Shown: positions 12,967 through 31,103 of the stretch, piece by piece | How the letters are laid out: every line of letters begins with the position of its first letter | Numbering within the stretch: position 1 is the first letter of the stretch | From: Thermoanaerobaculia bacterium | Lineage (GTDB): Bacteria; Acidobacteriota; Thermoanaerobaculia; Multivoradales; UBA5704 | Assembly (NCBI GenBank): GCA_044226625.1 | Contig: JBGAGQ010000023.1 | Span: forward strand, 1-64,000 | DNA: 64,000 bases | Direction of reading: 5' to 3' | The notes under the pieces: generated by a model | What the model saw: the letters and a program-made list of their open reading frames with translations, nothing else | Database searches by the model: none | What the model was told of the DNA's origin: nothing | Position numbers and translations under genes: made by a program

Positions 12967-14934
12967 TCAGAACGCGGTTCGATCCGCGCGGCTGTCGATC
13001 CGTCCAGAAGGATTGGCGTAGAGCTTCGTCTGGCCGGTTTCGAGGTCGGTGACCTTGACCTTATATCCCTTCGGCGCGAGGCCGCCCAGATAAACCCAGA
13101 ACTTGCCGTTCGCCGCGCGGCCGTCCGTCATCGTCAGCACGACGAGGGGGATCTCCGGAGCGCTCGGAAAGGCGAACATGCCGCTTCGATCCGTACGGAG
13201 GATGGCGAGCGCCGGACGCGGGTTTGCTCCGGCGAGCAGCTCGGCGCGGAACCGGCCGCCGAGCAGGCAGAGCGCGCGGCTCGTGGGGACGCAAGGCTCG
13301 CCGAGCGCCGGGGCGGCCGCGGGCGCCGCCGCGCTATCGGCAGCGGATCCAAGAGGTTCTCCAAAAGTGGCCGAAATGCTCGGCAACGCGCCGAGGAAGC
13401 GCTGGCTCGCGAACCGCCCGGCCGGCTTGGCGAACGTGCGCACCATCCCGGTCGTCTTGTCCGTCACGCGAATGTCGAGCGCGGCGCCCGTCGTGGCGGA
13501 GAACGTCAGATCGCGCGCGCCGGGGCCGGAGAGAAGCACGGCGACTTCGTGATCGGCGACGTTGCGCAGACCGAACGTCGCGACGTTTCCCGCGAGCGGC
13601 AGAGGCTTTGCGGTGCCGCTCTGCGAGCCGTTTCGCCAGGCGATCTCGACGGCGTACCGTCCGTCGGGACCGAGGCAGGCGGCGTTGCCGCCCGGGAGGC
13701 AGGGGATGGTGAAGATCGCGCCGAACAGATCCGCGCTGCCCGGCACCGACGGATCGAAGCCGGACCAAGCCACTTGGAAGCTGGTCGCGCCGCGATCCGG
13801 GAGCGTGGCGCTCACGAACGACAGGCTCCCCTCCGAGAGCGGGAACGGCGCGGTCGCGGAAAGGCCCGTGCCATCGAACAGGCGGCCGACGATCTTGCCG
13901 TCGGGGCTCCGACCGAGAAGCAGGGCCCGGTCCGCGCTGTCGGTCCCGATCGCGGGGCGGCTCTGATTCGATCGTGGTACCCCGAGGGACTGCTCCGCCA
14001 CCACGGGCAAGCCGTCCGGTCCCAGACGGACGATCCGAGTCTCCCCCGGCTGGTCGGTCGCCCCAAGGCTGGTCCATGCGGCCCACCAGCCGCCGGAGGC
14101 TCGAGAGACGACCCGTACGTCGACCTTCTGTTGACCAGCCTGCTGCGGGCTGATTGGAAAGGCCTCGGACGTCGGGTGGCCAGCGGTGTTGAATCGGCGC
14201 CCGTAGATCCCGCCGTAGGTGGTGAAATCGGAGGACTGCGACCAAACCGCGAGCGCGGTCGAGTCGGCGGCGAAAGCGATGTCGGGCGTGGCCTGGAACC
14301 CCGTCTCGATGGCTGCCAGAGGAAAGGCGTCGGTAAACGGGGTGAGGGTCGAATCGTAGAAGCGGCCCATCACGAAGAAGAAGCCCGGAAAGCTGACATT
14401 CGACGAATACCAGACGACCGCCACGTTGCCGTTCGGCGCCACCGCCAAGCGCGGATCGGAGCTGTAGGCGAACTCGTCGTAGTCGAAGGCGACCTGAACC
14501 GGCGCGCCGACCGGACGCCCCAAGGCATCGAGGCGATGCAGCCGGATCGCGGTTTGGAGCGATGCCGGACTGTCGATCGGCTCGCGAGCCGATACGGCGA
14601 GGAATCCCCCGTCGGGAAGAGCGACCAGGTTGGCCTCGGACCCTAACGGATGCTCGACCTCCCCTCCCAGCCGCCGCCCCGCGGCGTCGAACCGGAGAGC
14701 TCGGTGGAAGCCCGTGGTTGTGCCGGCGCAGCCGCCACCCGACCAGAGGAGCAGAAAGGAGCCCCCGGGCTGAGCGGCGATCTCCGGAGTCGTCTCATAG
14801 CAAGGTGCCGGATCTCCCGCCGTGAACGAGCCGACCCGGTCGAGCTGGGCGTCGAGCGCGGGCGACGCGCAGAGCGATGTGGTGATCAGGAAAGCGAAGA
14901 TGGCCAAAAGCGATCCGTGGCGAGATGTGCGCAT
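12967..14934 (-). CDS. Secreted repeat protein, paralog 1 (duplicated C-terminal domain, ends DRTAF)
   Basis: Signal peptide. 'PxIAxxPxG...RFDAAG' repeats. Two 'C-x(7-8)-CL..RF' domains and 'DGRAANGKFWVYLGGL'. Confidence 0.85.
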   Translation of the reverse strand: MRTSRHGSLLAIFAFLITTSLCASPALDAQLDRVGSFTAGDPAPCYETTPEIAAQPGGSFLLLWSGGGCAGTTTGFHRALRFDAAGRRLGGEVEHPLGSEANLVALPDGGFLAVSAREPIDSPASLQTAIRLHRLDALGRPVGAPVQVAFDYDEFAYSSDPRLAVAPNGNVAVVWYSSNVSFPGFFFVMGRFYDSTLTPFTDAFPLAAIETGFQATPDIAFAADSTALAVWSQSSDFTTYGGIYGRRFNTAGHPTSEAFPISPQQAGQQKVDVRVVSRASGGWWAAWTSLGATDQPGETRIVRLGPDGLPVVAEQSLGVPRSNQSRPAIGTDSADRALLLGRSPDGKIVGRLFDGTGLSATAPFPLSEGSLSFVSATLPDRGATSFQVAWSGFDPSVPGSADLFGAIFTIPCLPGGNAACLGPDGRYAVEIAWRNGSQSGTAKPLPLAGNVATFGLRNVADHEVAVLLSGPGARDLTFSATTGAALDIRVTDKTTGMVRTFAKPAGRFASQRFLGALPSISATFGEPLGSAADSAAAPAAAPALGEPCVPTSRALCLLGGRFRAELLAGANPRPALAILRTDRSGMFAFPSAPEIPLVVLTMTDGRAANGKFWVYLGGLAPKGYKVKVTDLETGQTKLYANPSGRIDSRADRTAF

Positions 14935-14968
14935 ACCGAATCCTTTTCCATGGGGCTCGAGACAGCGG

Positions 14969-16924
14969 TCAGAAAGCGGTCCGATCCGCCCGGCTCTCCA
15001 GCCGGCCGACGGGGTTCGAATAGACCTTCTCCGCCCCGGTCGACAGGTCGGTGATCTTCACCTTGTAGGCCGCGCGCGAGAGGCCGCCCAGATAGACCCA
15101 GAACTTGCCGTTCGCCGCGCGGCCGTCCTTCATCGTCAGGACGACGAGAGGCGTTTCCGCCGCGCTCGGGAAAGCGAACGTACCGCTTCGATCGGTGCGG
15201 AGGATGGCGAGCGCCGGACGCGGGTTCGCTCCGGCGAGCAACTCGGCGCGGAACCGCCCGCCGAGCAGGCAGAGCGCGCGGCTCGTGGGGACGCAAAGTT
15301 CGCCGATCACCGGGGCGATCGCGGGCGTCGCGGCGGTTTCGGCGGCGGACGGGAGAGCTTCTCCGAAAGCCGACGAGGCGCTTGGTAATGCGTCGAGGAA
15401 GCGCTGACTGGCAAACCGCCCAGCCGGTTTGGTGAACGTGCTCACCATCCCGGTCGTCTTGTCCGTCACACGGATTTCGAGCTCCGCGCCGGTGGTGGCC
15501 GCGAAGGTCAGATCGCGCGCGCCGGAGCCTCCGAGGATCACGGTGACCTCGTGGTCGGCGACGTTGCGCAGGCCGAACGTCGCGGCGTTGCCGGCGAGCG
15601 GCAAAGGTTTCGCGGTGCCGCTCTGTGAGCCGTTTCGCCAGGCGACCTCGACGGCGAATCGTCCGTCGGGACCGAGGCAGGCGGCGTTCTTCCCTTCGAG
15701 ACAGGTAGGGGCGACGAGGGAACCGGCCAGGTGAAAGCCGGATTGGGGAAGGGAGCCGGCCCACGCGGCAAGGAATCCGGCGGTGCGGCCACTGGTGAGC
15801 GTCGGGTCGCGTACGGTCGCGGTCCCCGAGATTTCGATCAGGTTCGAGCTCTCGTTCCCTTCGTGGTCGAACATCCGTCCCACGGCCAACTCGTTGCGGC
15901 TTCCCAGGACGAGGAGCCGGCCCGCTTGATCGACGGCGGCGGAAAACGGAAAGGCCGCATGGAGGTCGGGCACCGGCCTCTCGGTACCGACGGGTCTGCC
16001 GTCTCCGTCCAGTCGAACGAAGCGAATCTCCTCCGTCGCGAGAAGAGGCGCGCGAAACGTCGGAGTAAGAATCCTGTGCGACCAGACCGCCCACCAGCCG
16101 CCCCCGGGACGAGCGATCAAGCGGGGCGAGAAGTCGCCGTGGCTCGGCTCCAGGGTGCTGATCGGAAAAGGCTCGGAAAGCGGTTGCCCGGTGACGGCGA
16201 ACCTGCGGCCGAAAATCTGGGTTTGCGACGGCGAGAGATATCGTCGCCAGGCAACCAACGCCGTGCCGTCCGGGGCGAAGGCAACCTCGGGATCGAATTC
16301 GCCGACTTGGCTCTCGGGGCTCGACAGATGAACTCCCTCGGCGATGGGGCGCAGGTTGGCGTCATAGAAGCTGGCTTTGAGTTTGCCCTGAAAGTCCGTG
16401 GAAGGAGTCGGGTCGAGCCAGACGACCGCGACAGCTCCGGCGGAGGAGACGGCGACGCGCGGCTGGAGATTGAGGGTGAAGGAGCTCGTGTCGTAAGCGA
16501 CGGCGATCGTCGCGCCGACTTGCCGACCGAGCCCGTCGAGACGATGCAGGCCGACTCCCTGGGGCGTGAGGGAAAAATCGAACCAACCGAGGGCGACGAA
16601 TCCGCCGTCCGGAAGCGCCGCGGTCTTTAGTTGGACCAAGTGCCCGAGCGAATTGGCCGGAGCGAGGGGCCGGCCCGCGGCGTCGAACCTCTGGGCGAGC
16701 CCTACATTGCAACCGAAGCAGGTCGCGCCTTTCGAAGTTAGGAGGTACGAGCCTCCTGGCTGGACCGCGAGATCCGGATCGAGGTCGTAGACGTGCGCGG
16801 ACCTCCCCGCGGTGAAGGAAAAGAGTCGTTCGATCTCCGCCGCGCCGAGGGGCGCGGCAAAGAACGAGGCGGCGATCAGGAAGCTGAGGGAGGCCGAAAG
16901 CCATTTGAGGCGAGATGTGCGCAT
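14969..16924 (-). CDS. Secreted repeat protein, paralog 2
   Basis: Same architecture as paralog 1. C-terminal region nearly identical to paralog 3. Confidence 0.85.
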   Translation of the reverse strand: MRTSRLKWLSASLSFLIAASFFAAPLGAAEIERLFSFTAGRSAHVYDLDPDLAVQPGGSYLLTSKGATCFGCNVGLAQRFDAAGRPLAPANSLGHLVQLKTAALPDGGFVALGWFDFSLTPQGVGLHRLDGLGRQVGATIAVAYDTSSFTLNLQPRVAVSSAGAVAVVWLDPTPSTDFQGKLKASFYDANLRPIAEGVHLSSPESQVGEFDPEVAFAPDGTALVAWRRYLSPSQTQIFGRRFAVTGQPLSEPFPISTLEPSHGDFSPRLIARPGGGWWAVWSHRILTPTFRAPLLATEEIRFVRLDGDGRPVGTERPVPDLHAAFPFSAAVDQAGRLLVLGSRNELAVGRMFDHEGNESSNLIEISGTATVRDPTLTSGRTAGFLAAWAGSLPQSGFHLAGSLVAPTCLEGKNAACLGPDGRFAVEVAWRNGSQSGTAKPLPLAGNAATFGLRNVADHEVTVILGGSGARDLTFAATTGAELEIRVTDKTTGMVSTFTKPAGRFASQRFLDALPSASSAFGEALPSAAETAATPAIAPVIGELCVPTSRALCLLGGRFRAELLAGANPRPALAILRTDRSGTFAFPSAAETPLVVLTMKDGRAANGKFWVYLGGLSRAAYKVKITDLSTGAEKVYSNPVGRLESRADRTAF

Positions 16925-16955
16925 GGTGATCCTTTACCGTGGGTTCGAGAAACGG

Positions 16956-18926
16956 TCAGAAAGCGGCTCGATCGGCGCGGCTCTCCAGCCGGCCGACGGG
17001 GTTCGAGTAGACCTTCTCCGCCCCGGTCGACAGGTCGGTGATCTTCACCTTGTAGGCCGCGCGCGAGAGGCCGCCCAGATAGACCCAGAACTTGCCGTTC
17101 GCCGCGCGGCCGTCCGTCATCGTCAAGACGACGAGAGGCGTTTCCGCCGCACTCGGGAAGGCAAACGTGCCGCTTCGATCGGTGCGGAGGATCGCGAGCG
17201 CCGGACGCGGGTTCGCTCCGGCGAGCAGCTCGGCGCGGAACCGCCCGCCGAGCAGGCAGAGCGCGCGGCTCGTGGGGACGCAAGGCTCGCCCAGCGCCGG
17301 GGCGATGGCGGGCGTCGCCGCACCTTCGGCGGCGGATGGGGAAGCCTCTCCGAAAGCGGACGAGGCGCTCGGTATGGCGTCGAGGAAGCGTTGACTGGCG
17401 AACCGCCCAGCCGGTTTGGTGAACGTGCCCACCCTCCCGGTCGTCTTGTCCGTCACACGGATTTCGAGCTCCGCGCCGGTGGTGGCCGCGAAGGTCAGAT
17501 CGCGCGCGCCGGGGCCGGAGAGGATCACGGTGACCTCGTGATCGGCGACGTTACGAAGACCAAACGTCGCGGCGTTGCCGGCGAGCGGCAACGGTTTCGC
17601 GGTGCCGCTCTGTGAGCCATTTCGCCAGGCGGCCTCGACCGCGTACCGTCCGTCGGCACCGAGGCAGACGGCGCTCTTGCCTTCGAGACAGGTGGGGGCG
17701 ACATACGTTCCGGTAAGAGGCGTCGGCGACTGCTGCGGCGATAGGGCCCAAGAGGCCAGGAAACCGGTGGGGAGACTTTGGCCGAGGACCGGATCGAATG
17801 CGGCCGAGCCATCAGAGAGGGGAATCCGTTCGGAGACCGCGTTGCCGTCGCGATCGAAGAGTCGACCGACGATCGCATTGCCGTTGATTCCAGCCACGAG
17901 AAGTCGACCTCTCCCGTCGACCGCGGCGGAAAAAGGCGCGAACGGGTCGAGGTCGGCCACCGCCTGCTCGCTGCCGACCGGCTTCCCGTCGGCGTCGAGC
18001 CGAACCAGACGAACTTCACCTATCGCGGCGAGAGGCGTGCGGATCGGCGGAGGGGAAAAGCCCCGGACCGACCAGATCGCCCACCAACCGCCCTCGGGTC
18101 GAGCCACGAGGCGGGGCTGGTCCTGCTCTCGATTCGGTTCGGCTACGCTGATCGGAAAGGGCTCCGACAGGGGATGGCCGGTCGAATCGAAGCGTCGTCC
18201 GAACATCTGCGACGCGAACGGCCCGACGAAACGCATCCAAGTGACGAGCGCCGTGCCGTCCGTGGCGAAGGCGACCTCGGGACGGTATTCGCCGCCGACT
18301 GGGATCTCGGGCACCGACAACTCAACGCTTTCCGCGATCGGTCGCAGGTTGGCGTCGTAGAAGCTGCCCTTGAGGCCTTCGGCAGTCGTGAACTGGGTCG
18401 TGTCGTCCCAGACGACAGCGACCGTGCCGGTGGGAGAGACGGCGATCCGGGGATCGAGGTTGAGGGTAACGAAGCTCGTGTCGATCGCGACGACGATGGG
18501 ATCGCCGATGGGGCGGCCGAACGCGTTGAGCCGGTGGAGGCCGATTCCTGAAAGAACGTCGGGAGAGCGCAGCGAAAGGTCGAACGCCGTGACAGCGACG
18601 AATCCTCCGTCCGGCAAAGCCGCCAACCCGAGGTGACCGCCTTGCCAGAGCGAGTTGGATGGGGCGATCGGTCGGCCCGCGGCATCGAATCGCTGCGTAC
18701 GGACCGAATCGCACCCGACGCAACTGGTGGCCTGCGACGCCAGAAGAAAAGAGCCTCCCGGCTGGATGGCGATAGCCGGACCGTAGTCTCGGAGGCTTGC
18801 GGGATTGCCGGCCCCGAAGGAGAAGATGCGGTCGACTCCCGCCGCGTCGGCGGGTGATGCGAAAAGCGAGGCGGCGCTCAGGAAAACGAGGGCGTTCGAA
18901 AGCGATCTGTTGCGGAACGTGCGCAT
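16956..18926 (-). CDS. Secreted repeat protein, paralog 3
   Basis: Same architecture. Ends ADRAAF. Confidence 0.85.
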   Translation of the reverse strand: MRTFRNRSLSNALVFLSAASLFASPADAAGVDRIFSFGAGNPASLRDYGPAIAIQPGGSFLLASQATSCVGCDSVRTQRFDAAGRPIAPSNSLWQGGHLGLAALPDGGFVAVTAFDLSLRSPDVLSGIGLHRLNAFGRPIGDPIVVAIDTSFVTLNLDPRIAVSPTGTVAVVWDDTTQFTTAEGLKGSFYDANLRPIAESVELSVPEIPVGGEYRPEVAFATDGTALVTWMRFVGPFASQMFGRRFDSTGHPLSEPFPISVAEPNREQDQPRLVARPEGGWWAIWSVRGFSPPPIRTPLAAIGEVRLVRLDADGKPVGSEQAVADLDPFAPFSAAVDGRGRLLVAGINGNAIVGRLFDRDGNAVSERIPLSDGSAAFDPVLGQSLPTGFLASWALSPQQSPTPLTGTYVAPTCLEGKSAVCLGADGRYAVEAAWRNGSQSGTAKPLPLAGNAATFGLRNVADHEVTVILSGPGARDLTFAATTGAELEIRVTDKTTGRVGTFTKPAGRFASQRFLDAIPSASSAFGEASPSAAEGAATPAIAPALGEPCVPTSRALCLLGGRFRAELLAGANPRPALAILRTDRSGTFAFPSAAETPLVVLTMTDGRAANGKFWVYLGGLSRAAYKVKITDLSTGAEKVYSNPVGRLESRADRAAF

Positions 18927-18959
18927 GAGGGGTTCATTCCATGTTCCTAAGAACGGCGA

Positions 18960-21035
18960 TTAGAAAGCGGTCCGATCTAACCGGCTCTCGAGCCGGCCGA
19001 CGGGGTTCGAATAGAGCCTCACCGCCCCGTTCGTTAAGTCGGTGATCTTCACTTTGTAGGCACCCGAGGCGAGACCGCCCAGCTGGACCCAGAACTTGCC
19101 GTTCGTCGCCCGGCCGTCGACCATCGATAGGAGGACGACGGGAGACTCGGGAGCCCTGCCGAGAGCCAACCCGCCGCTCCTGTCGGTGCGCGAGAGGGCC
19201 GAGGTCGGCCGGGGATCCTGCTCCGCCAGTAGCTCGGCCCGGAATCGGCCGCCGAGCAGGCAGAGCGCGCCGCTGGTCGGGACGCACGCTTCACCCACCG
19301 TCGCGACAGGGGGGACCGGGTCGATCGCGGAGAAAACCTCGGCGGTCGCCTCCCGCTCGCCCGCGACCGGAGGAGGGAACCCACCGTCGAGCGCGGCGGT
19401 CGGCAGGGCGTTCACGATCCGCCGGCTCTCGAAGCGTCCCGCGGCTTTGGCGAAGGTGCGCAGCATTCCGCTCGTCCGGTCGGTGACCCGAATCTCGAGC
19501 GCGAGGTTGGTGGTCGCGGCGAAGGTAAGGTTCTTCCCCCCGGGGCCGGCGAGAAGCACCGTGACGTCGTGGTCGGCCGTGTTCCTGATTCCGAACGTCG
19601 CGACGTTGCCCGAAAGCGGCAGCGCCTTCGCCGTGCCGCTGCCAGCGGCCGATCGCCAGACGACCTCCACCCGGTAGCGCCCGCCCAGGCCTAGACACGC
19701 TGCGCTGGGCCCCCCGATGCATGGGGGCGACAGAAGCGACCCGGAGAGGTCCGTGCCTGCGACCCCTGCGGAGGTTAGGGACCAGGTCGCCGGGATCGCG
19801 CCGGACGATCGATCGGGCAACGCGGGGAGAGCGGCCGTCTGCGGAGCGGGCCCGGAGAGCCGGACGCGGTCCGAAGCCGGCAGGCCGGCGGAATCGAACC
19901 ACCGGCCAGCGACCGCTCCGGATTTTTCGCCGACCAGCACCAGCAGATTGCCCGCGGCCTCCCCGCCGAGCGCGAAAGATTCGATCGCGTCGGAATCGAC
20001 GAAGGGCTGTTCGCTTCCCATCGAGGCACCGTTCGTTGCCAGGCGTTCGATCCGGACCTCGGAGATCGGCGGTGGGCCGGCGGGAAGCCCCTGCTGGCTT
20101 TTCCACCCCACCCACCAGCCGTCGGCGCCGCGCCGTACGACCCGCGGCTCGACGTTGATCCGAAACCGCTCGGACCGGCTGATCGGAAACGCCGGCGACA
20201 GCGCGACGCCGCTGGAGCTGAATCGACGGCCGACGACCTGGTACTCGTTCGTGTCGACGAAGTGTGCCCAGACCGCGAGCGCCGTGCCGTCGCTCTGGAT
20301 CGCGACGTCCGGATCGGTTTCGCCGAACGGAGGCGCGGCGAGCGGCGATAGGGCGAGGGCGTCGGTCAAGGGGCGGAACGCCACATCGAAGAACCGGCCG
20401 CGCGGGATCCCCGCGGAATCCCGCCAGACCACGATCACCGAACCGTTGGGCGCGACGGCGAGGCGGGGTTGGGTATTGGGGTTGAGGTCGTTGGGGTCGA
20501 TCGCGACGACGGTCGCTCCTCCCTTCGGCCGCCCGAACGCGTCGAGCCGGTGGAGACCGATCCCCGCGGGACCTTGGGGGCGCAGGGACGACTCGAATTC
20601 GGAGACCGCCGCGAACCCACCATCGGGCAAGGGAACGGTCCGCGGCTGAGCTCCGTCCCAGAGCTCGATGGCGGGGGCTGCCGGCCGTCCCACGGCGTCG
20701 AAACGCTGGGCGCGGATCCTGCGCGTCGCCCCGTTCGGACAGCCGCTCCGCTGCCAGATCAGGAGGAACGAGCCGCCCGGCTGGACCGCGACGTCGGGAG
20801 CCCGGTCGGCGCAGGGCGCCGGATCGCCGGCCGAGAGCGGGGCGATCCGGTCGATGTCGACGCCGAAGGCGGGCCAAGCGGCGAGCGTCATCGAGAGGGT
20901 GAGAGCGCGGCGCAGCGCGCCCGCCGTTGCGCTATGGAGGGGAAGCGCCCTCGGAGGCGTCACACGCCGGCTCGCCGGCGGCTCGATGCCGCCGCGTTGG
21001 AGTCTCTCTTCGATCGACATCTCTTCGGACGGCAT
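18960..21035 (-). CDS. Secreted repeat protein, paralog 4 (start uncertain)
   Basis: Same architecture. Ends LDRTAF. Confidence 0.8.
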   Translation of the reverse strand: MPSEEMSIEERLQRGGIEPPASRRVTPPRALPLHSATAGALRRALTLSMTLAAWPAFGVDIDRIAPLSAGDPAPCADRAPDVAVQPGGSFLLIWQRSGCPNGATRRIRAQRFDAVGRPAAPAIELWDGAQPRTVPLPDGGFAAVSEFESSLRPQGPAGIGLHRLDAFGRPKGGATVVAIDPNDLNPNTQPRLAVAPNGSVIVVWRDSAGIPRGRFFDVAFRPLTDALALSPLAAPPFGETDPDVAIQSDGTALAVWAHFVDTNEYQVVGRRFSSSGVALSPAFPISRSERFRINVEPRVVRRGADGWWVGWKSQQGLPAGPPPISEVRIERLATNGASMGSEQPFVDSDAIESFALGGEAAGNLLVLVGEKSGAVAGRWFDSAGLPASDRVRLSGPAPQTAALPALPDRSSGAIPATWSLTSAGVAGTDLSGSLLSPPCIGGPSAACLGLGGRYRVEVVWRSAAGSGTAKALPLSGNVATFGIRNTADHDVTVLLAGPGGKNLTFAATTNLALEIRVTDRTSGMLRTFAKAAGRFESRRIVNALPTAALDGGFPPPVAGEREATAEVFSAIDPVPPVATVGEACVPTSGALCLLGGRFRAELLAEQDPRPTSALSRTDRSGGLALGRAPESPVVLLSMVDGRATNGKFWVQLGGLASGAYKVKITDLTNGAVRLYSNPVGRLESRLDRTAF

Positions 21036-21080
21036 GACACCCTTTCTTCGGACTCTTTTGAGCTCCAATCCCTCAGTGGG

Positions 21081-22628
21081 TCACCGGACCGCCGACGCGG
21101 CGGCGAACGCCGCCCCCGCCGGATCGAGCGCGTCGAACGCCCGCGACCAATACGGCGTGGGCACCGGCCCATAATGGCCGATCCCCGGCACCTCGACGTA
21201 CGCCGTGTGGGCGAACCCTTCTCGCTCGAAGGCGTGGAGAACCTCGCGGGTCTGGACCCGATTGAAATCGCGCTCGGCGGTGAGGAAGACGTAGCGATTG
21301 CGGCTCTTGGCGAGGTCGAGGTCGTGCTTCGCCGGCTTGGGATAGAGCGCGGGCCAATTGGTCCCCGGCCGGTCGGGGATCGGCAGCGGTCGAAACCAGT
21401 CGCATCCGACCATCATCAAACCACCTCGAAAGACCTCCGGATAGGCGACCGAAAGGACGCTCGAGACCCGGCCGCCTCCCGAGTAGCCGGCGATGTAGAT
21501 CCGCTCCGGATCGATCGTGTAGAGCTTCGCAGCGGCGTGCGCGGCGTCGAGCGCGAGCGCGAAGCGGTACCAGCGCGGGCGCTCGTTGCCGGCGTCGTTG
21601 GCGCCGACCCAGATCAGCCGGCGGCGCGCCATGTCCGCGAGAAGGTCGGGGCGCGAGGCGCCGCCGATCGGGCTCGGGCTCACCCAGATGATCAAGCCGT
21701 GCGCGACGCTCGGTGAATAGCTTTCCGGCACGACGAAGCTGAAGCTCTCCCGCGCGAGGTCGTAGCGCCCGCGGTTCGGATCGGCGTCCAGCTCCTTGCG
21801 TGCGATTCCGGTACGGCGGGCGAGCTCCGAGAGGTCGGATCGAGGGCTCCTCTCGGCGAGGCGGGCGGTGATGATCCCGGTGCGATGCGGGCTCGCTACC
21901 GTGAGGACGGGCGCGGCTTCGCGGTTCGGGGTCGCTGGAGGGGACGCTGGAGCGGCTTCGGGGCCGGATTCGGATCCGCCGCCCGCGGCGTCCGCCATCA
22001 ATAGCTCCAGCAGGCGGGCCGACTCCGCGTCGTTACGGTCGGCCGCGATCGCTCGTTCGAGGGCGGCGATCGCCTCGGCGCGGTTCCCCTCTTCGAACCA
22101 GGCGCGGGCGATCGCGCGCAGGACGGGAGCTTGGCCGTCCGGCGGCAGCTCCGGCAGGGCGCGCTGCCACAAGGCACGCGCCTCCGCCCGCTTCCCTTCG
22201 GCGAGTCTCCGGTTTCCCTCGTCGATCCAGCCGCGCACGACCGACCGATCGGTCTCGTGCGCCCCGGCCGCGATCGAGGCAAGCGGGCGGAGCTCGAAGT
22301 GAAGCTGCGGCCCGGGCCCGTCCTCCGGCACCTGGGCTTGCCCCTCGGCGCGAAGGTATCCCTCCGCGTCCACCGTCGCAAACCAGGTCCCGGCGCCGAG
22401 GCCGAGCGCGGACCAGCGGCCGCGCGCGTCGCTCTCGGTCGTCGGTCCGGGACCGTCAGGGCGCTCGAAGTGGAGCGCGACGCGGGCCTTCTCGATCGGA
22501 CGGGAGCCGGCGTCGGATACCTGCCCCGAAAGCCGGCCGACTCCGGTCCACGACTGGGCCGGAGTCGCCTGGGGCAGGAGGAGCAGCCCGGCGAGCAACG
22601 ACAGTCGGGCGGCCGAACGGGGCTGCAA
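21081..22628 (-). CDS. Secreted carboxypeptidase-regulatory-like + TPR + alpha/beta-hydrolase protein
   Basis: Signal peptide. 'LSGQVSD...ESDARGRW' beta-sandwich and TPR-like helices. Nucleophile 'IYIAGYSGGG' and 'PGIGH'. Confidence 0.75.
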   Translation of the reverse strand: MQPRSAARLSLLAGLLLLPQATPAQSWTGVGRLSGQVSDAGSRPIEKARVALHFERPDGPGPTTESDARGRWSALGLGAGTWFATVDAEGYLRAEGQAQVPEDGPGPQLHFELRPLASIAAGAHETDRSVVRGWIDEGNRRLAEGKRAEARALWQRALPELPPDGQAPVLRAIARAWFEEGNRAEAIAALERAIAADRNDAESARLLELLMADAAGGGSESGPEAAPASPPATPNREAAPVLTVASPHRTGIITARLAERSPRSDLSELARRTGIARKELDADPNRGRYDLARESFSFVVPESYSPSVAHGLIIWVSPSPIGGASRPDLLADMARRRLIWVGANDAGNERPRWYRFALALDAAHAAAKLYTIDPERIYIAGYSGGGRVSSVLSVAYPEVFRGGLMMVGCDWFRPLPIPDRPGTNWPALYPKPAKHDLDLAKSRNRYVFLTAERDFNRVQTREVLHAFEREGFAHTAYVEVPGIGHYGPVPTPYWSRAFDALDPAGAAFAAASAVR

Positions 22629-22640
22629 CGATCCTTCTCC

Positions 22641-24578
22641 TTAGAAAGCCTGCCGGTCGATCCGAGTGGTGGGGTGGCCCGCGAGCTGGTGGTAGACCTT
22701 GATTTTTCCGGTTTGGGTGTCGGTGACCTTGACCCGATAGGCCGCGTCCGAGAGCCCGCTCAAGGAGACCCAGAACTTGCCGTTGCTCGTGCGTCCGTCG
22801 ACCAGCCCGACGACGAGGCCGAGGCCGCCGTAGCGTTCGTCGAATCGAAACGTCGCCCGCTTGTCGTCGAACAGAGCGCCGCGAGACTTCTGTTTCGTCC
22901 CGTCCGGCAGTGTCCAGTTGACGTCGACGCGGAAGCGACCGCCGAAGAGGTCGATCGGCAAAGCCATCGCCGCGGCCGCGGGGCTTTCGGCGAGCGGCTC
23001 GGTCTCGGCGGTCGCCGCCGTGCGTGCCGCGTTGCTAGCGATTCCGAGCCGGCCGCTCGCGAAGGCCCCGGGCGGTTTCGTGGCCGTGGCGGTCGCGCCG
23101 GTCGCGCGATCGATCAGCCGGATCGTGATGCCCACGCTGGTGGCCGCCGCGTAGGTCAGGTCCAGGTTGGGCTCACCCCCGAACCGCAACCGAACCGCCA
23201 CCTCGGGTGCCCGCGCGCCGAACGCGAAGAGCGCGCCCGTGGCGTCCAGGACGATCGGCCGCGCGTGCTCGATCGAGCCGCCGGCGCCGGTGCGCGAAAT
23301 CTCGACGCCGATCTGGTCCCCGAGAAGGCACGCGGCGTGTTGCGACACGGGGCAGCTCGGACGGAACGTCCGTCCGCTGATGTCCATTTCCTCCGGGTCC
23401 GGGAGGTCGCTTTCTTCGTTCACTCGCTCTGCCTTCGTCCAGGCCGCGACGAGGGTGCCGGTGGAGGAACGAGAGATCGCTGGAGCGTCGAACACCCACA
23501 CCGGTTTCGGCGCCACCTCGAACGGTTCGGTGAGGGCGGCGCCGTTGGGATCGAACCGTCGGGCGACGAGAGGGGCTTCGAGCGGTTGGACGAGCACCAG
23601 GACGTTGCCTCCCGGGTCGAGCCCCAGGTTTACCGCGGTGCTGTCGAGCCGGGGAGCGCCGCCGACGTAGGTGCCCGAAATCTGGCCGCTTTCCACGCCC
23701 TGCGCGGGAAGGTGGGCGAAGACCGAGCCCACCTCGAAGCCGAGTCTGCGCTCCCAGGTGAGCGACCATCCGCCATACGGGCTCCCGCCGATCAGGCGGG
23801 GGTTGAGATTGTCGCCGAAGCCGGGCACGGTGATGAGGAACGGCGGGCCTGCGGGCGAGCCGTCGGCCGGATAGCGACGGCCGAAGATCGGCGTAAAGGC
23901 GTAGGGGAATTCGGCGACGCTGCGAGCCCAAACGACCAGCAGATCGCCGCGATGGTCGAACGCGAGATCGGGCGCCTCGAAGGCATTCGGGAGATCCTCG
24001 AGCGGAATCGGTGCGGAGGCCGGCGTGAGGTCGGCGTTGAATCGCCGGAGCATGATTTCCTGGCGGTACGGCTGCTGCAGCTCTCGGATCCAGGTGATCG
24101 CGAAATTCCCCTCACCGCTGACCGCGAGCCGGTGCCGAAGCTTCTTGCTCGGGTCGGTCTCGCCTGCGTCGACGGACCTCGGCGAACCGAGCTGCCACCC
24201 CCGGGCGTCGAGGCGGACGAGCTCGAGGTCGGAGCTGAAGGCGGACCGCGAACGGGTCCAAGCGATCGCGAAGCCGCCGTCGGGAAGGGCGATGAGAGCG
24301 GGCGACCGGCCCGTCCCGAGGTCGAGCTCCGCTCCGATCGGTCGGACCTCGGCGTCGTAGAGCTGACCGACGAGCCGCGTTTCGAACCCCTCGCAGACGC
24401 GGTTCCATACGAGCAGAAAACTGCCGCCCCGCGAAACGGCGACGTCCGGCGCGATGTCGTCGCAGTCGACCGATCCGGCCGCGAAGGTGCCGATCGAGAA
24501 GTCTTGCGCGGGGAGCGCGGCGGGGGCGAGGCTGGCGGCACCTAACAGGATCGTGGCAAGCCCAAGGATCGAGCGCAT
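22641..24578 (-). CDS. Secreted repeat protein, paralog 5
   Basis: Same architecture but more divergent. GAGGAGG RBS. Ends IDRQAF. Confidence 0.85.
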   Translation of the reverse strand: MRSILGLATILLGAASLAPAALPAQDFSIGTFAAGSVDCDDIAPDVAVSRGGSFLLVWNRVCEGFETRLVGQLYDAEVRPIGAELDLGTGRSPALIALPDGGFAIAWTRSRSAFSSDLELVRLDARGWQLGSPRSVDAGETDPSKKLRHRLAVSGEGNFAITWIRELQQPYRQEIMLRRFNADLTPASAPIPLEDLPNAFEAPDLAFDHRGDLLVVWARSVAEFPYAFTPIFGRRYPADGSPAGPPFLITVPGFGDNLNPRLIGGSPYGGWSLTWERRLGFEVGSVFAHLPAQGVESGQISGTYVGGAPRLDSTAVNLGLDPGGNVLVLVQPLEAPLVARRFDPNGAALTEPFEVAPKPVWVFDAPAISRSSTGTLVAAWTKAERVNEESDLPDPEEMDISGRTFRPSCPVSQHAACLLGDQIGVEISRTGAGGSIEHARPIVLDATGALFAFGARAPEVAVRLRFGGEPNLDLTYAAATSVGITIRLIDRATGATATATKPPGAFASGRLGIASNAARTAATAETEPLAESPAAAAMALPIDLFGGRFRVDVNWTLPDGTKQKSRGALFDDKRATFRFDERYGGLGLVVGLVDGRTSNGKFWVSLSGLSDAAYRVKVTDTQTGKIKVYHQLAGHPTTRIDRQAF

Positions 24579-24671
24579 CGAAACCTCCTCAGAATGGACT
24601 TTTGGAGGAAAGGCGCAATCGCCGTTGGAAGGGGGCCAGCTCCGTCTCGACCGCCATCTCGGCTATGGGTC

Positions 24672-26600
24672 TCAGAACGCCTGCCGGTCGGCGCGGCTTT
24701 GGCGCTGGCCGGCCGCGTTCGAATAGGTCCGCGAAGCGCCCGTGGTCACGTCGGTCACCTCGACGTGGAACGAGGCGTCGCTGAGGCCGCCGACGTAGAC
24801 CCAGATCTTGCCGTTCTTCGACCGTCCGTCCACGACGGAAAGCGCGGCGCCGCCGGCCGCGCCGGGCAGATCGAAGTAGACCTGGCGATCGGCGTAGGCA
24901 AGCACCTGGGCCGCGCGCTCGACGCCGTCGGCCCCGGTGGAGAAGGCGGAGACTCGGAACCGCCCGTCGAACAGGCACCCGGAGGTCGCCGAAGGAGCGC
25001 AGGTCCCCGTCGGCGGTGGGGCCTCCGGGAGGATCGCGTCCGTCACCGCGGCCGCGGGGAGCGGCGCGCTCGTCGGGGCAGGCAATGCGAGATGACCGCT
25101 CCGGAACGGGCCGCGCGGTTTCTGGGCGACGAGCGTCGCCCCCCCCTCGGTCCAGCGGATCTCGACCTCGGCGTTGGTGGTGGCCGCCCAGTCGATCGCA
25201 CCCCCAAGAAGGTCGACGGCGACGTCGAACCGCCCCGGGTTCTCGAGCGCGAAGAGGAGATGCCTGCCGAGCCGGAGGCCGCGACCGGTCCCGGCGAGCG
25301 CGCCGAGCTTCCACCGGACCTCCACTTGGGCTTGAACGGGGGACTGCACGTCGCCGAGGCGAGCGCAGAGCGCGGCGGGGTTCGGACAGGACGCGGCGAG
25401 CGTCGCGCCGCGGAGGTCCCATCCCGCCTGCGCGACCGGAGGCGGCGGATAGTAGTCGACGTCTCCCTCCCAGATCGCGGTGAAGCCGGACGGGGAGGCC
25501 GGCGCCAGGTCGACGCGCCCGAGCGGACGCGGATCGGGACCCGCGGTGCGCAGGAGGTTCGAGGCGGCGGCGCCGCTCGGTTCGAACAGCCGCGTCGTAA
25601 CGCTTCCATCGGCGGCTCGTCCGGCGACCAGAACGAGGGCGTCCGGATCGAGCGCGACGACCGGTTCGGCGAAGTTGCCGATCAGCCCGACGTCGATTCG
25701 CGGACCCGCGAGCCCGCCATCCGGTCCGAGGGCGCGCAGGAAAGTCTTGGTGACGACCGACTGCCCTCCCTCGCTCTCCTCCCACACCATCCACCAGCCG
25801 CCGCCGCGCCGGGGTGCCAACCGGGGATTGGCCGCGAAAAGGCCGCCGCCGCTCACGTCGACGGCACTGCCGACCTGAATTCCCGAGGCATCGAAACGGC
25901 GGGCCGCGACGTTGCCGAGCGCGAGGACGGCGATCGCGCGCCCCTCCTCGTCGAACGAAACGTCGAGATCGTCGAGGAGGCCCGCGTAGCCGAGCTCGAA
26001 CGACGAACCGGCCGGCTGGGCGTTCGCATCGAGCAAGCGGCCAGCGGCCAGGAGCTGGCTGATCGGGATCGGAATCGGCGTGAGGAAGACGTAGCGCCAG
26101 GCGGCGAACAGCCGGCCGTCAGGCGCCACGCTCAGCCGGGGGGCGCTGTAGTCGACCCTCGTGCTCTCGGTCGTCTCATCAAGCCGGACCGCGGCGCCCA
26201 GCGGGAGCCCCGTCGAGGCGAGCCGCCGCGCGTGCACGGTGAACAGCCCCCGTTCCCGGTCTTCGAGCAGGTAGGCGAGGGCGAAGCCGCGATCGGGAAG
26301 GGGTACGACCTGGGGAAGCAACCCTTCGCCGAGGTCGATCGGCGCTCCGAGCTTGCGGCCGAGAGCGTCGAGCCGCTGCGCGCGAAGGAGAGTAGGGAAA
26401 TAGCAGCGCTGCCAGACCGCGAGGAACGAGCCGTCGGGCTGCGCGGCGATCTTCGGCGCGACGTCGTCGCAGGCGTCGTCGCCTAGGGCGAACGAGGTGC
26501 GGCGGGCGACCTCGAGGGCGGAGGCCGGCGGCGCGGTCCAAGAGGTCGCGCAAAGCAGGAGGACGGCGACGAACGGCAGAAGGGCGCGGCGGCTCGGCAT
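24672..26600 (-). CDS. Secreted repeat protein, paralog 6
   Basis: Same architecture. AGGAG RBS before MPSRRALLP. Ends ADRQAF. Confidence 0.8.
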   Translation of the reverse strand: MPSRRALLPFVAVLLLCATSWTAPPASALEVARRTSFALGDDACDDVAPKIAAQPDGSFLAVWQRCYFPTLLRAQRLDALGRKLGAPIDLGEGLLPQVVPLPDRGFALAYLLEDRERGLFTVHARRLASTGLPLGAAVRLDETTESTRVDYSAPRLSVAPDGRLFAAWRYVFLTPIPIPISQLLAAGRLLDANAQPAGSSFELGYAGLLDDLDVSFDEEGRAIAVLALGNVAARRFDASGIQVGSAVDVSGGGLFAANPRLAPRRGGGWWMVWEESEGGQSVVTKTFLRALGPDGGLAGPRIDVGLIGNFAEPVVALDPDALVLVAGRAADGSVTTRLFEPSGAAASNLLRTAGPDPRPLGRVDLAPASPSGFTAIWEGDVDYYPPPPVAQAGWDLRGATLAASCPNPAALCARLGDVQSPVQAQVEVRWKLGALAGTGRGLRLGRHLLFALENPGRFDVAVDLLGGAIDWAATTNAEVEIRWTEGGATLVAQKPRGPFRSGHLALPAPTSAPLPAAAVTDAILPEAPPPTGTCAPSATSGCLFDGRFRVSAFSTGADGVERAAQVLAYADRQVYFDLPGAAGGAALSVVDGRSKNGKIWVYVGGLSDASFHVEVTDVTTGASRTYSNAAGQRQSRADRQAF

Positions 26601-27671: not shown

Positions 27672-28760
27672 TTACCGAACCCGCTTGCGCCGATTGCGAA
27701 TGTAGTCGGCGAGCAGGAACTCCCCAAGGTTGTACGGGGAGGCGAAGTAGGCGCGGCCGCGGTTGATCTGCGTGAGCTTCTCGACGAAGTCGGTGAGCAT
27801 CGGATCGGTCGCGAGCATGAAGGTCGTGATGACGATTTTCTGGCGCCTGCAGATGTCGGCCTCTTTCAAGGTGAGGTTGACGATCCGCATGTCGAGGCCG
27901 AAGGGATTCTTGTAGACGTGATCCCCTTCGGTGATCGCCGAGGGCTTGCCGTCGGTGATCAGGAAGATCTGCTTGTTCGGCTGCTTCTGGCGCGACAGCA
28001 TCCCTCGGGCAAGCTGGAGCGCCTCGCGGGTGTTCGTGTGGTACGGCCCGGCCTGGAGGTAGGGGAGGTCGGCGAGCTTCATCGGCTCGGCGCGGTCGCC
28101 GAACTGGAGGACGCCGAGGTGATCCTTCGGGTACTTCGTGGTGATCAGCTCGGTGAGGGCGAGCGCCACGGTCTTTGCCGGGGTGATCCGGTCCTCGCCG
28201 TAGAGAATCATTGAGTGGCTAACGTCGATCGCGACGATCGTGGCGCAGGAGGTGAGGTGCTCGGTTTCGAAGACCTCGAGATCCTCTTCGGCGAGATCGA
28301 GCTCGCCTTTCGTCCGCCTCATCGCGTTCTGCAGCGAGCGGGCCGAATCGATCAGGTTCAGGTCGTCGCCGAAGCTCCAAGGCTTCGTCTCGGGCTGGCG
28401 CTCGATTCCCTCGCCGGAGGCCTGGATCGGGTGGTAACCCGCGGTCGAACGGTCGAGCCCGCCGAAAATCTCCTCGAACGCGCTCCGCCGGATCTTTCGC
28501 TCGCCCCCGTAGGTGAGCGACATACCCCCCTCCTGGTCGCGGCCGATCAGGTTCTGCTGCTCCAGGCTCTCGAAGAACTCCTCGAGGTCGAGGTCTTCGG
28601 GAAGATACCCCTGGGACTGGAGCTCCCGCATCCAGTTCATCGCCTCTTCGGGATCGCCCCCGGCGGCCAGCACCAACTGATTCCACAGGCGCAGCAGATC
28701 GAGCCCCGCCATGATCGCGCGGAGCAGTTCGGGGTCGAGCCAGGTGTACTTGTGGCGCAT
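27672..28760 (-). CDS. VWA domain protein (partner of AAA ATPase)
   Basis: MIDAS 'IDVSHSM', 'HTNT' and 'LITDGKPS'. Confidence 0.88.
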   Translation of the reverse strand: MRHKYTWLDPELLRAIMAGLDLLRLWNQLVLAAGGDPEEAMNWMRELQSQGYLPEDLDLEEFFESLEQQNLIGRDQEGGMSLTYGGERKIRRSAFEEIFGGLDRSTAGYHPIQASGEGIERQPETKPWSFGDDLNLIDSARSLQNAMRRTKGELDLAEEDLEVFETEHLTSCATIVAIDVSHSMILYGEDRITPAKTVALALTELITTKYPKDHLGVLQFGDRAEPMKLADLPYLQAGPYHTNTREALQLARGMLSRQKQPNKQIFLITDGKPSAITEGDHVYKNPFGLDMRIVNLTLKEADICRRQKIVITTFMLATDPMLTDFVEKLTQINRGRAYFASPYNLGEFLLADYIRNRRKRVR

Positions 28761-29000
28761 GAAGGGATCTACAAGCTCGAATCGAAGGTCATTGAACGGC
28801 GCGGTCTCCTCGGGGCAACGGACATGGGGAGATCATCGCACGGCGTTGCGGAAGCGGAAAGGGCGACCGACTTTCGGGTCCAGGGAGGATGGGGCGCGCC
28901 GAGGACGAGAGGATCGATCGGAACGAAAAGCCGAGCCATGTGCACATTACTGGTAGAGAGGCGAACGGATCGCCTCCGTTCGGGGTAAGGAGAGGGAGAG

Positions 29001-29177
29001 ATGAGAAAGCGTGCCTTGAAGCTCAACCTGTCGAAGGAAACCCTGCGCAGCCTGGCCGACGAGGAATCGGTCGAGGTCGGCGGCGCCACCCGGCGAACCT
29101 GCGTGTTCACCTGCACCGGCAGCGCGGTCGCCTGCTGCGTGACGGGCGGCGAGCTGTACAGCTGCCCCTGCTCGTAG
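29001..29177 (+). CDS. Putative RiPP (lanthipeptide-like) precursor peptide, 58 aa
   Basis: Manual translation MRKRALKLNLSKETLRSLADEESVEVGG-ATRRTCVFTCTGSAVACCVTGGELYSCPCS*. Purine-rich RBS AAGGAGAGGGAGAG. Absent from the ORF track because it is under 60 aa. Confidence 0.8.
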   Translation: MRKRALKLNLSKETLRSLADEESVEVGGATRRTCVFTCTGSAVACCVTGGELYSCPCS

Positions 29178-29278
29178 ACGAACCTTCGCGGGCGCCGGAC
29201 CTCCCGACGCCCGCGCCCCCAGAGCGATGAAGAGGCTCGTCGTCGCCGACTCCATCTTGGGACTTTTCGGTACAGTCT

Positions 29279-29920
29279 TTAGATCTGGCCGAGCTCGATG
29301 CCGCGGAGCACCGCACGGGTACGGTCGCGGACGCCGAGCTTCGAGAGGATGCTCGAGACCTGGTTCTTCACCGTCCCTTCCGAGGTACCGAGAGCGGAGG
29401 CGATCTCGCGGTTGCTGTATCCGCCGGCCATCAGTCGCAGCACGTCGATTTCCCGGGGCGTCAGCGGATCGGCGCTTTCGAGGCTCTCGAACGTGCGGGC
29501 CGCCCCTTCGATCAGGCTCACGACCCGCTCGGTGACCGCGGGACGGATCAGCGTCTCGCCGCGGGCGATGGCTCGAATTGCCTCGGTCAACCGCTCGAAC
29601 GAGACGTCCTTGAGCAGGAACCCTTTTGCGCCTGAACGCAGCCCCGCGAACAACGCCTCGTCGTCGTCGAAGGTGGTGAGCAGCAGCGTGGGGGGAAGCT
29701 CGTTCGTCCGCCCCAGCTCCCGCAGCACGTCGAGACCCGAGACTCGCGGCATGCGAACGTCGAGCAGCAGGACGTCGGGCCGCTCGCAGCGCGCGGCTTC
29801 GATCGCCTCGCGGCCGTCCGCCGCCTCGGCGACGACGCGCAGATCGGGGGTCAGCTCCAGCAGGCCGCGCAAGCCCGCGCGCATCAAGGTCTGATCGTCC
29901 GCGAGGAGGATGCGGATCAC
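29279..29920 (-). CDS. NarL/LuxR family response regulator
   Basis: 'IRILLADDQ', 'LLDVRMP' and HTH 'LTPREIDVLRLMAGGYSNREIA'. The GTG start overlaps the kinase stop. Confidence 0.92.
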   Translation of the reverse strand: MIRILLADDQTLMRAGLRGLLELTPDLRVVAEAADGREAIEAARCERPDVLLLDVRMPRVSGLDVLRELGRTNELPPTLLLTTFDDDEALFAGLRSGAKGFLLKDVSFERLTEAIRAIARGETLIRPAVTERVVSLIEGAARTFESLESADPLTPREIDVLRLMAGGYSNREIASALGTSEGTVKNQVSSILSKLGVRDRTRAVLRGIELGQI

Positions 29921-31103
29921 GAGGCGCCTCCCGCGCTCCGGGGTACGCGCACGCGGACCGCGAAGCCCGAGGTACCCTCCTCTCCCCGGGGCTCGATCTC
30001 GACCGAGCCGCCGTGTACGCCGAGCCGCTCTCTCAGCCCCGCGAGTCCATGCCCCTCGGCGAAGTCGGCCGCGCCCCGCCCGTCGTCCGTCGCCGACAGC
30101 TCGACCGTCTCGGAATCTGCCGAAAGAGCGATCCGAAGTGTGGTCGCTTCGGAGTGACGGATCGCGTTGGTGATCAGCTCCTGCGCCGCTCGCACGAGGT
30201 CGGCCGCGATCTCGGGGTCGAGCGGCGGCAGCTCGTCCGGCAGCCGAAGGTCGACCTTCAAGGAGGGGACGCCCGCGGTGAGTAGCCGAAGTCCTTCGGA
30301 GAGATCGAGCCGGCTCGCAGCCGAGCGACCACGTCTCGCACCTCCTGAAGCAGCGCCCGGGCGACCCCCTGCGCACGGCGAAGCGTGGCCGAAAGGGGCG
30401 CATCCGGCTCGCCGGACGCCCCACCGAGCTGCTTCGCCAGCTCCAGATGAACCGACAGCAGCGCGAGGTGATGGCCGACCCGGTCGTGCAGCTCGCGCGA
30501 GATGCGGAGCCGCTCCGCCGTCCGGCTCCCTTCGGCGAGGCGGTCCTGCGCGGCGGAGAGGTCGGCATTCGCGCGTTCGAGGTGGCGCCGCGCCCGCTCC
30601 TCGCTCGCCGCGGCGTACCCGGCAAAGAACGCGAACGCCTGCCAGGCGAGCGCGCCGAGCGCCGTGAGCAGGGTGGCCTCGACCGCCGGGAGGCCCCGGG
30701 CGGCCTCCCAGACGACGACGTTCTCGCTGCCGGCTGCCGCGAGCAGGAGGGCGGTCATCGCGATCCCTTGGCCGGCGAACGCCGCGATGCCGAACCCGCC
30801 GGGGAGGACGAACGGGATTTCCGCCGCAAGGACGACGAGGAAATTCGTATGCATCGCGAGCGCCGTTGCGAGCTGGAGACCGAGCAGGACCGCGCTCGAA
30901 CCCTGCGGCCGATCGACGCTCCGCCGCGTGTTGCGCACGAACGCCCAGGCGAAGAACAGGCTGAGCAGGATGAGGAGGACGCGCGGGACCCAGATCCTTC
31001 CGGATCCCGCCGGAACCGAAAGCTTGAGCTGGTTCCAAAGATCGACGGAGAGGGTTGCGATAGCGCACAACCCCGCGATCTGCAAAAGGCGCCGGGGACG
31101 CAT
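29917..31103 (-). CDS. Membrane sensor histidine kinase (HisKA_3), frameshifted near 30315
   Basis: TM helices and 'ERLRISRELHDRVGHHL' in one frame. 'QELITNAIRHS', 'DDGRG' and 'GHGLAGLRER' in another frame. Confidence 0.8.

Follow-up and report, generated by a model that had tools for sequence, protein, structure and literature searches.

The window, a stretch of 64,000 nucleotides corresponding to positions 1-64000 of contig C10 of the assembly G000 (6.6 Mb, 67.7% GC, 97.9% complete, 5.5% contaminated), contains a short open reading frame whose translation of 58 aa agrees with the peptide given in the original prediction. A strong ribosome-binding site and a region rich in Cys, Thr and Ser had also been claimed, and both are borne out, because the TAAGGAG element lies at a spacing of 8 nt from the ATG and the 30-aa stretch after the GG has the stated composition of 6 Cys, 5 Thr and 3 Ser. 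The positions of the gene, of its parts and of the enzymes discussed below are collected in Table 1. A Pfam search of the peptide gave no match at E values up to 10, and the NCBIfam model NF038153 (class I lanthipeptide leader) scored it at 14.5 bits, with a curated cut-off of 22. The literal L-x-L-x-K-x5-L motif is present in the leader (L8, L10, K12, L18) and is followed by the double-glycine-type pair G28-A29. The stem-loop past the stop codon (-27.7 kcal/mol, z -2.43; 4 of 200 shuffles were equally good) is likely a transcript end or stabiliser. A consensus scan for a sigma-70 promoter and an intrinsic terminator around the gene returned no site, and an AA...GCAC pattern at window positions 28925-28950 (+), 55-75 nt upstream of the ATG and common to all five orthologous upstream regions, may be the promoter. 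As a hint of expression, a 155-nt RNA contig from one metatranscriptome run spans 28967-29121 with two differences, of which the one listed, at 29090, is synonymous; this run, the sole one containing any of the window (a share of 0.07), consists of contigs only, with neither strand nor gene ranking, and DNA carry-over is possible.

Table 1. Precursor gene, surrounding features and enzymes proposed to act on its product. Plain numbers are window positions; all other positions give assembly, contig and coordinates.
Feature	Position	Strand	Basis or remark
Ribosome-binding site TAAGGAG	28986..28992	+	Sequence; purine-rich GGAG-type site in all 5 orthologous loci
Precursor gene (LanA), 58 aa	29001..29177	+	Same-site orthologues in G001, G003, G004, G007
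Leader, 29 aa, basic N-terminus	29001..29087	+	Alignment of 56 leaders
Leader strand L8-x-L10-x-K12-E13-T14-L15-x-x-L18			Presumed LanB/LanC docking strand
Transporter register in leader: L18(-12), E22(-8), V26(-4), G28(-2), A29(-1)			
Core, 29 aa (TRRTCVFTCTGSAVACCVTGGELYSCPCS)	29088..29174	+	6 Cys, 5 Thr, 3 Ser
GC-rich stem-loop past stop codon, no U-tract	29187..29215	+	Fold calculation
Flanking VWA-domain gene	27672..28760	-	Pfam VWA_2; marks insertion site, outside the pathway
LanB, 1123 aa	G000:C93:86992-90363		Glutamylation and elimination domains; PF04738 572 bits, PF14028 229 bits
LanC1	G000:C4:58628-59944		Standalone; directly after three precursors
LanC2	G000:C114:7232-8530		Standalone; alone
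C39 transporter and membrane-fusion partner	G000:C93:130014-134380		

A DNA search for the locus in 24 relatives found orthologues at the same site, adjoining the VWA gene, in four of the seven congeners; the precursor was not found at the VWA site in G002 or G006, and the region was unmatched in G005. The five orthologous copies retain all six Cys as well as six Ser/Thr positions, and, besides the peptide itself, a protein database search yielded just two close homologues, both of which keep the six Cys. Over 26 codons, the core has a dN/dS ratio of 0.14 when compared with G004 and of 0.17 with G007, and the pair G004-G007 gives 0.02; for the orthologues that are more distant, the ratio is 0.8 (G001) and 0.5 (G003). 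The 58-aa ORF is a real gene, and both its leader and its core appear to be under purifying selection. In G002 and four of five family-level loci, none of which was found to hold a precursor, the VWA gene comes immediately after its ATPase partner; this direct adjacency makes it probable that part of the genus acquired the precursor by insertion between the two genes, in the opposite orientation. Two congeners, G007 (L051:983-1627) and G001 (L052), have another gene of ~200 aa between the VWA gene and the precursor, implying that the junction took several insertions. The neighbours of the precursor in the window are the VWA gene, a response regulator, a sensor kinase and a beta-lactamase-fold protein, with the two-component pair and the beta-lactamase-fold gene sitting between the precursor and the ATPase gene, and the neighbours scanned include no local tailoring enzyme. 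The sensor kinase (window 29917-31103, -) is read as two overlapping frames of 281 aa and 114 aa, which could be a frameshift or a split gene. Farther upstream, the window carries six near-tandem, paralogous-looking genes of ~550-650 aa with N-terminal signal-like stretches (12967-26600, -), of which two share identical last five residues and two that were tested had no Pfam match.

The original prediction had envisaged a dispersed precursor library, and the genome holds one, whose 56 precursors are distributed over 44 regions of 33 contigs. When short ORFs were scanned genome-wide with a leader regular expression, the real six-frame set gave 33 matches, 32 of which have at least 2 Cys, compared with 1 match in the reversed set and 2, 0 and 0 in three shuffled sets, none with 2 Cys. 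The library was built with this expression and an iterated leader HMM, which together gave 55 matches at E<0.05 (the HMM gave none at this threshold on reversed frames), and the 56th precursor (C76:26506, E 1.6, 9 Cys) was added by eye. All 35 matches of NF038153 in the genome fall within the 56, and 6 of them exceed its cut-off. Across the 56 leaders L10 is invariant and L8, E13, T14 and L18 are each conserved in at least 90%; the cores are unlike one another, only 2 within-genome core pairs scoring at least 0.55. A GGAG, AGGA or GAGG ribosome-binding site is present in 51 of the 56 genes, and the 60 nt past the stop codon fold with a mean of -28.7 kcal/mol (55 precursors) vs -21.9 kcal/mol for 300 other genes (p=2.5e-10). 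Comparison of the 56 upstream regions with 2192 background regions revealed no k-mer or gapped pair above about a quarter of the genes and none that was convincing after multiple testing. The nearest neighbours are mostly unrelated housekeeping genes (83 of 88 scanned, four more separately; one 2043-aa protein and neighbours extending beyond the fetched loci were left out). The 56 genes look like separate small transcription units. Libraries of 17-56 copies are found in all seven congeners.

Two of the precursor loci have genes of another kind at hand. A 399-aa methyltransferase with a PRMT_C match lies between two precursors (L037:2758-3957, G000:C84:15792-16991) and has a 43% identical homologue inside the lanB cluster of G030, making it a candidate tailoring enzyme. 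On contig C96, a 744-aa protein of the Trp-halogenase family with a 225-aa N-terminal extension (L042:404-2638) is encoded directly upstream of a Trp-rich precursor that shares its strand and runs off the contig end, and this protein is a candidate dedicated halogenase.

The 56 cores are 15-57 aa long, with a mean of 5.8 Cys, and consist of 16.9% Cys, 14.6% Thr and 8.6% Ser, compared with 0.7, 5.0 and 5.8% in the proteome; Ser and Thr together equal or outnumber Cys in every one of them. A sample of leader loci from four congeners (30 of 37 in G001, 30 of 53 in G007, 25 of 25 in G004 and 30 of 56 in G002) gave 117 precursors, of which 2 truncated ones were dropped. At a normalised score of at least 0.55 (the shuffled maximum was 0.49 in 280 trials), counterparts were found for at least 28 of the 56 cores, a number that is a lower bound since the sampling of congener loci was partial, and flanking synteny is seen in 15 of the 28 pairs. 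Over these pairs the Cys are kept in 169 of 169 cases and the pooled dN/dS is 0.21 for cores and 0.13 for leaders, although the selection of pairs by similarity inflates the Cys conservation and lowers the dN/dS. Ser/Thr are kept as Ser/Thr in 208 of 221 cases (94%) vs 392 of 564 (70%) for the other residues.

The leader end is of the double-glycine type, as the original prediction had it, and the position of the cut most likely has to be shifted by one residue, from Gly27-Gly28/Ala29 to Gly28-Ala29/Thr30, so that the proposed 30-aa core becomes one of 29 aa. The shift comes from the transporter register. Passages of PMC6363468 give the consensus of PCAT substrates as Leu(-12)-x3-Glu(-8)-Leu(-7), Val(-4) and a Gly-Gly, Gly-Ala or Gly-Ser end, and describe position -7 as important. 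Of 171 precursors, 56 of them from G000 and the other 115 from four congeners, 109 have a GG or GA whose end is at a distance of exactly 12 residues from the conserved Leu, and these in-register leaders have Leu at -12 in 107, Leu, Met or Val at -7 in 81 and Ala, Val or Ile at -4 in 105 cases. The window peptide fits the consensus at five of six positions, with Ser at -7; the orthologues of G004 and G007 have GG at the positions of G28-A29, and that of G001 has no in-register site. Given the register formed by L18, E22, V26 and G28-A29, the leader is most likely cut after Ala29, giving a predicted 29-aa core that starts with Thr30 and has a calculated monoisotopic mass of 2974.26 Da, or 2866.19 Da with six dehydrations.

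Maturation enzymes had been reported as lacking around the gene, and profile searches of the whole contig C10 likewise gave no match for LanB, LanC, C39 or radical SAM enzymes. Maturation in trans, which had been postulated for this reason and which we also predict, would be possible with the enzymes of the genome, since one LanB, two LanC and one C39 transporter are encoded on other contigs. The LanB aligned over most of its length to the solved lanthipeptide dehydratases 9g04 and 5ehk, and its residues Y114, R117, R121, T123, R158 and D350 are invariant among 72 homologues. Its closest relatives, at 82-85% identity, come from records labelled Thermoanaerobaculia, Acidobacteriota and Holophagales, and myxobacterial ones share ~47-52%, which points to Acidobacteriota of the Thermoanaerobaculia type as the lineage of the genome. 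The two LanC proteins (438 and 432 aa, 41% identical) both have the motifs GVAHG, WCYG and LCHG, comprising the zinc-binding Cys-Cys-His set (CCH) and the catalytic His. The transporter, of 756 aa, matches PF03412 at 91 bits and keeps the Cys, His and Asp in an alignment to 6mpz; its membrane-fusion partner (698 aa; L007:7014-9110, G000:C93:130014-132110) shows a weak GAF match before the HlyD part. Precursors come no closer than 72 kb to lanB and 27 kb to the transporter. LanM was searched for in two ways: PF13575 had no match in the genome, and likewise none in its control, and the cyclase model PF05147, which does find LanM-sized frames in relatives, found only the two standalone LanC, both of the CCH type. 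A LanM route was therefore set aside.

The distribution of the enzymes over the genus points to a division of labour between the cyclases. LanB, LanC2 and the transporter are each single-copy in all eight genus genomes, and in all eight LanC2 has no precursor within ~1.5 kb; nine of the 12 accessory LanC loci have a precursor, and LanC1 is accompanied by the same precursor in G007. The CCH motif was returned for 17 of the 20 LanC genes of the genus and not for the other 3. From this gene context, LanC2 is likely the general, genus-core cyclase, and hence the likely cyclase for the window peptide, and LanC1 is more likely dedicated to its own neighbours. Given the completeness and contamination of the assembly, another enzyme could be missing from it.

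The three precursors directly before lanC1 on C4 tie the leader type to lanC within the genome, and the relatives extend this tie to lanB. Precursor, lanC and lanB stand together in six of 15 LanB loci from relatives (G024, G030, G027 twice, G025 and G016), which represent five other genera, and four of the six also have the transporter. Among the remaining nine, G002 has a precursor by lanB alone, three have lanC or the transporter with no detected precursor and five have lanB alone. More distant LanB loci (n=76) have a precursor within 4 kb in 16 cases and none within that distance in 60. With a match of at least 450 bits counted as a strong LanB, 20 of 40 relatives have LanB together with precursors, 16 have neither, three have precursors and LanB in pieces and one has LanB only, a count that overstates the co-occurrence because kin are not independent. 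In the genomes G018 and G022, which have 55 and 26 leader matches, lanB (contigs C13 and C3) is spread over several frames, which could be due to assembly errors or a broken gene. At least 17 precursor copies are present in 16 of the 40 relatives, 15 of which belong to family f1, and in a class-wide sample of 150 genomes 17 had a match, with only 1-2 copies outside the order. In G027, six tandem, closely related precursors lie between the transporter and lanC (L065:10494-12160, contig C7), possibly an early stage of expansion. We infer that an ancestral compact cluster may have broken up as the precursors multiplied.

The original prediction left open whether the peptide is a lanthipeptide or another thioether or disulfide product. 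The library, the enzyme inventory and the linkage of the leader to lanBC in relatives support a lanthipeptide-type precursor and narrow it to class I. With considerable confidence, we propose that the window gene encodes a class I lanthipeptide on which the shared LanB and LanC2, the cyclase of the genus core, would act in trans before its export, each chemical step being predicted from class I lanthipeptide biochemistry. The precursor gene would be transcribed as its own short unit, and the LxLxKETL strand of the leader would dock on the single LanB; this enzyme, drawing on glutamyl-tRNA(Glu), would dehydrate conserved Ser/Thr of the core, up to about six in number. Two tRNA-Glu genes are present in the genome. 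If Thr30 were dehydrated, the product could carry an N-terminal 2-oxobutyryl group, as in Pep5-type peptides. LanC2 would then add the six Cys to the dehydrated residues to form (methyl)lanthionine rings, and the C39 transporter would read L(-12), V(-4) and G-A, cut after Ala29 and export a 29-residue polycyclic peptide.

The extent of this modification could be smaller than proposed. Cys are even in number in the core, which also shows adjacent CC and CPC motifs, and two of its conserved Thr immediately precede a Cys with which they could not form a ring; moreover, one enzyme pair facing 56 unlike cores may act incompletely. The LanB/LanC substrate could thus be a mixed product: thioethers would involve only part of the Cys, the others (for example those of CC or CPC) being joined as disulfides once the peptide is exported, or LanB would leave free dehydro residues. 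However, the six conserved Ser/Thr match the six conserved Cys in all orthologues, which suggests full use and fits up to six thioether rings. We consider a mixed product unlikely, and it would share its pathway with the favoured reading and differ from it in extent only.

A more radical departure is an unmodified disulfide peptide of the class II bacteriocin or microcin type that uses the double-glycine transporter only, with LanB and LanC serving the C4 precursors. The transporter register is indeed the best conserved part of the second half of the leader, and the window gene has neither LanB nor LanC nearby. However, the N-terminal LxLxxET lies outside this register, is present in nearly all 56 leaders and stands beside lanBC in relatives; an odd number of Cys is found in 31 of the 56 cores, which speaks against all-disulfide products; Ser/Thr are retained better than the other residues, as described above; and LanB and LanC2 are kept throughout the genus, mostly without adjacent precursors. 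The disulfide reading is therefore quite improbable.

Other thioether or azole chemistries were considered as well, because the genome has 25 radical SAM matches and one YcaO, and a SPASM-type enzyme is encoded at a distance of 1.4 kb from one of the precursors. The models that this enzyme matched best were those of the heme b synthase AhbD and of NirJ2, without reaching either cut-off; only two of 24 radical SAM positions are within 5 kb of a precursor, and the genome, in which only the precursor-adjacent enzyme was typed individually, gave no sign of a SPASM maturase dedicated and linked to the precursor family. The YcaO gene is likewise flanked by two small ORFs of another type, and the compact clusters of relatives contain lanBC. 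It is thus very improbable that the peptide carries radical SAM thioethers, as a sactipeptide or ranthipeptide, or azoles made by YcaO. The YcaO locus itself (G000:C5:23592-26850), with the two small ORFs upstream and a downstream partner of 467 aa that we take to be TfuA-like, is probably a separate thioamide-type system. Equally slight is the chance that duplication scattered a copy that is now silent or decaying, or that the gene is an artefact of bin contamination, for while the 56 genes lack a common upstream motif, G002 and G006 lack the gene at this site and the bin is contaminated to the extent given above, the leader and core are under purifying selection, the ribosome-binding site and hairpin are kept, four other species have same-site orthologues, all seven congeners have many copies and an RNA contig, as weak evidence, covers the gene.

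To return to the class I lanthipeptide, purifying selection on single cores suggests a specific outside target, and the product is most likely a secreted molecule with such a target. In our judgement, antagonism is about as probable as all other roles together, and signalling on the one hand and metal binding or another role on the other share the rest about equally. Among the types of lipid II-binding motif quoted in passages of PMC7268733, none occurs in the window core.

The system resembles several known ones in part. The LxLxKx5L/Gly-Gly class I leader is described from Bacteroidetes clusters in passages of Walker et al. 2020 (PMC7268733), and the NF038153 or Bacteroidetes type shares with the present system the L-x-L-x-K-x5-L motif, the double-glycine-type end and the set of LanB, LanC and C39 transporter. 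According to the same passages, seven genes on either side of lanC were searched, 62% of class I precursors were alone in their cluster and the maximum was 10; in contrast, the present system is from Acidobacteriota, has its 56 precursors over 44 regions and has enzyme genes that are themselves unlinked. The two-domain LanB and zinc-ligand LanC, aligned to structures, are shared with class I systems of the nisin and microbisporicin type (4wd9, 5ehk, 2g02), which, as far as passages of PMC12328550 describe them, differ in having one clustered precursor, an FxLx leader and a separate protease and transporter. Within the same bacterial class, the tha and "the" clusters, presented in parts of PMC13083261 as compact class II clusters with LanM and a GMC oxidoreductase, also have Cys-rich lanthipeptide-type precursors, whereas G000 has no LanM match.

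The closest parallel in organisation is provided by the prochlorosins and synechococsins (ProcA-ProcM, SyncA-SyncM), in which, according to parts of PMC10783134, scattered precursors numbering 29 or 79 go with a single promiscuous LanM. As far as these accounts go, both systems have tens of scattered precursors with a conserved Gly-Gly leader, unrelated cores and one shared modifying system, but the prochlorosins are class II, with a bifunctional LanM carrying a CCC triad and a long Nif11 leader. The system of G000 instead has a separate LanB and LanC with a CCH triad, a leader of less than 30 aa and core plus accessory cyclases, and half of its cores (28 of 56) have counterparts in other species, a contrast that the accessible text on prochlorosins does not firmly establish. 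Identity with the prochlorosins was rejected, as there is no LanM and no Nif11 leader and the cyclases are of the CCH type.

A dispersed class I lanthipeptide library was not found in the full-text literature, of which the coverage was partial, with most subscription papers outside it, and its novelty is therefore provisional. A Thermoanaerobaculia genome with dozens of lanthipeptide precursors may already have been described. Where passages of PMC10783134, PMC12328550 and PMC11251773 describe a single enzyme system that serves tens of natural lanthipeptides, the enzymes are of class II and come from marine cyanobacteria, and parts of PMC11251773 and PMC12328550 link the tolerance of ProcM-type enzymes to the CCC zinc triad. 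A class I pair with an ordinary CCH site that serves a library would directly test this idea, and a tolerant macrocyclisation tool with a short leader could come of such a LanBC pair. Since the enzyme genes and precursors are unlinked, tools that look a few genes around lanC would miss ~53 of the 56. The conserved orthologous cores, unlike those of the prochlorosins, would be stable single products with a traceable function, and the 29-residue, six-Cys core of the window is a good first target.

For the family as a whole, the balance tips slightly in favour of a near-housekeeping, fully unclustered class I system of Thermoanaerobaculia, in which one LanB, a core CCH LanC and a transporter process 20-56 separately regulated precursors with 2-10 Cys each, and accessory cyclases or tailoring enzymes, such as the PRMT-like methyltransferase and the Trp-halogenase-like protein, stand beside single precursors. 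As individual cores would be under purifying selection across species, the library would be a set of distinct conserved products and not a random diversity generator. If this is true, the LanBC pair would be the most substrate-tolerant natural one, and the family would make hundreds of polycyclic peptides, a pool hidden from cluster-based mining.
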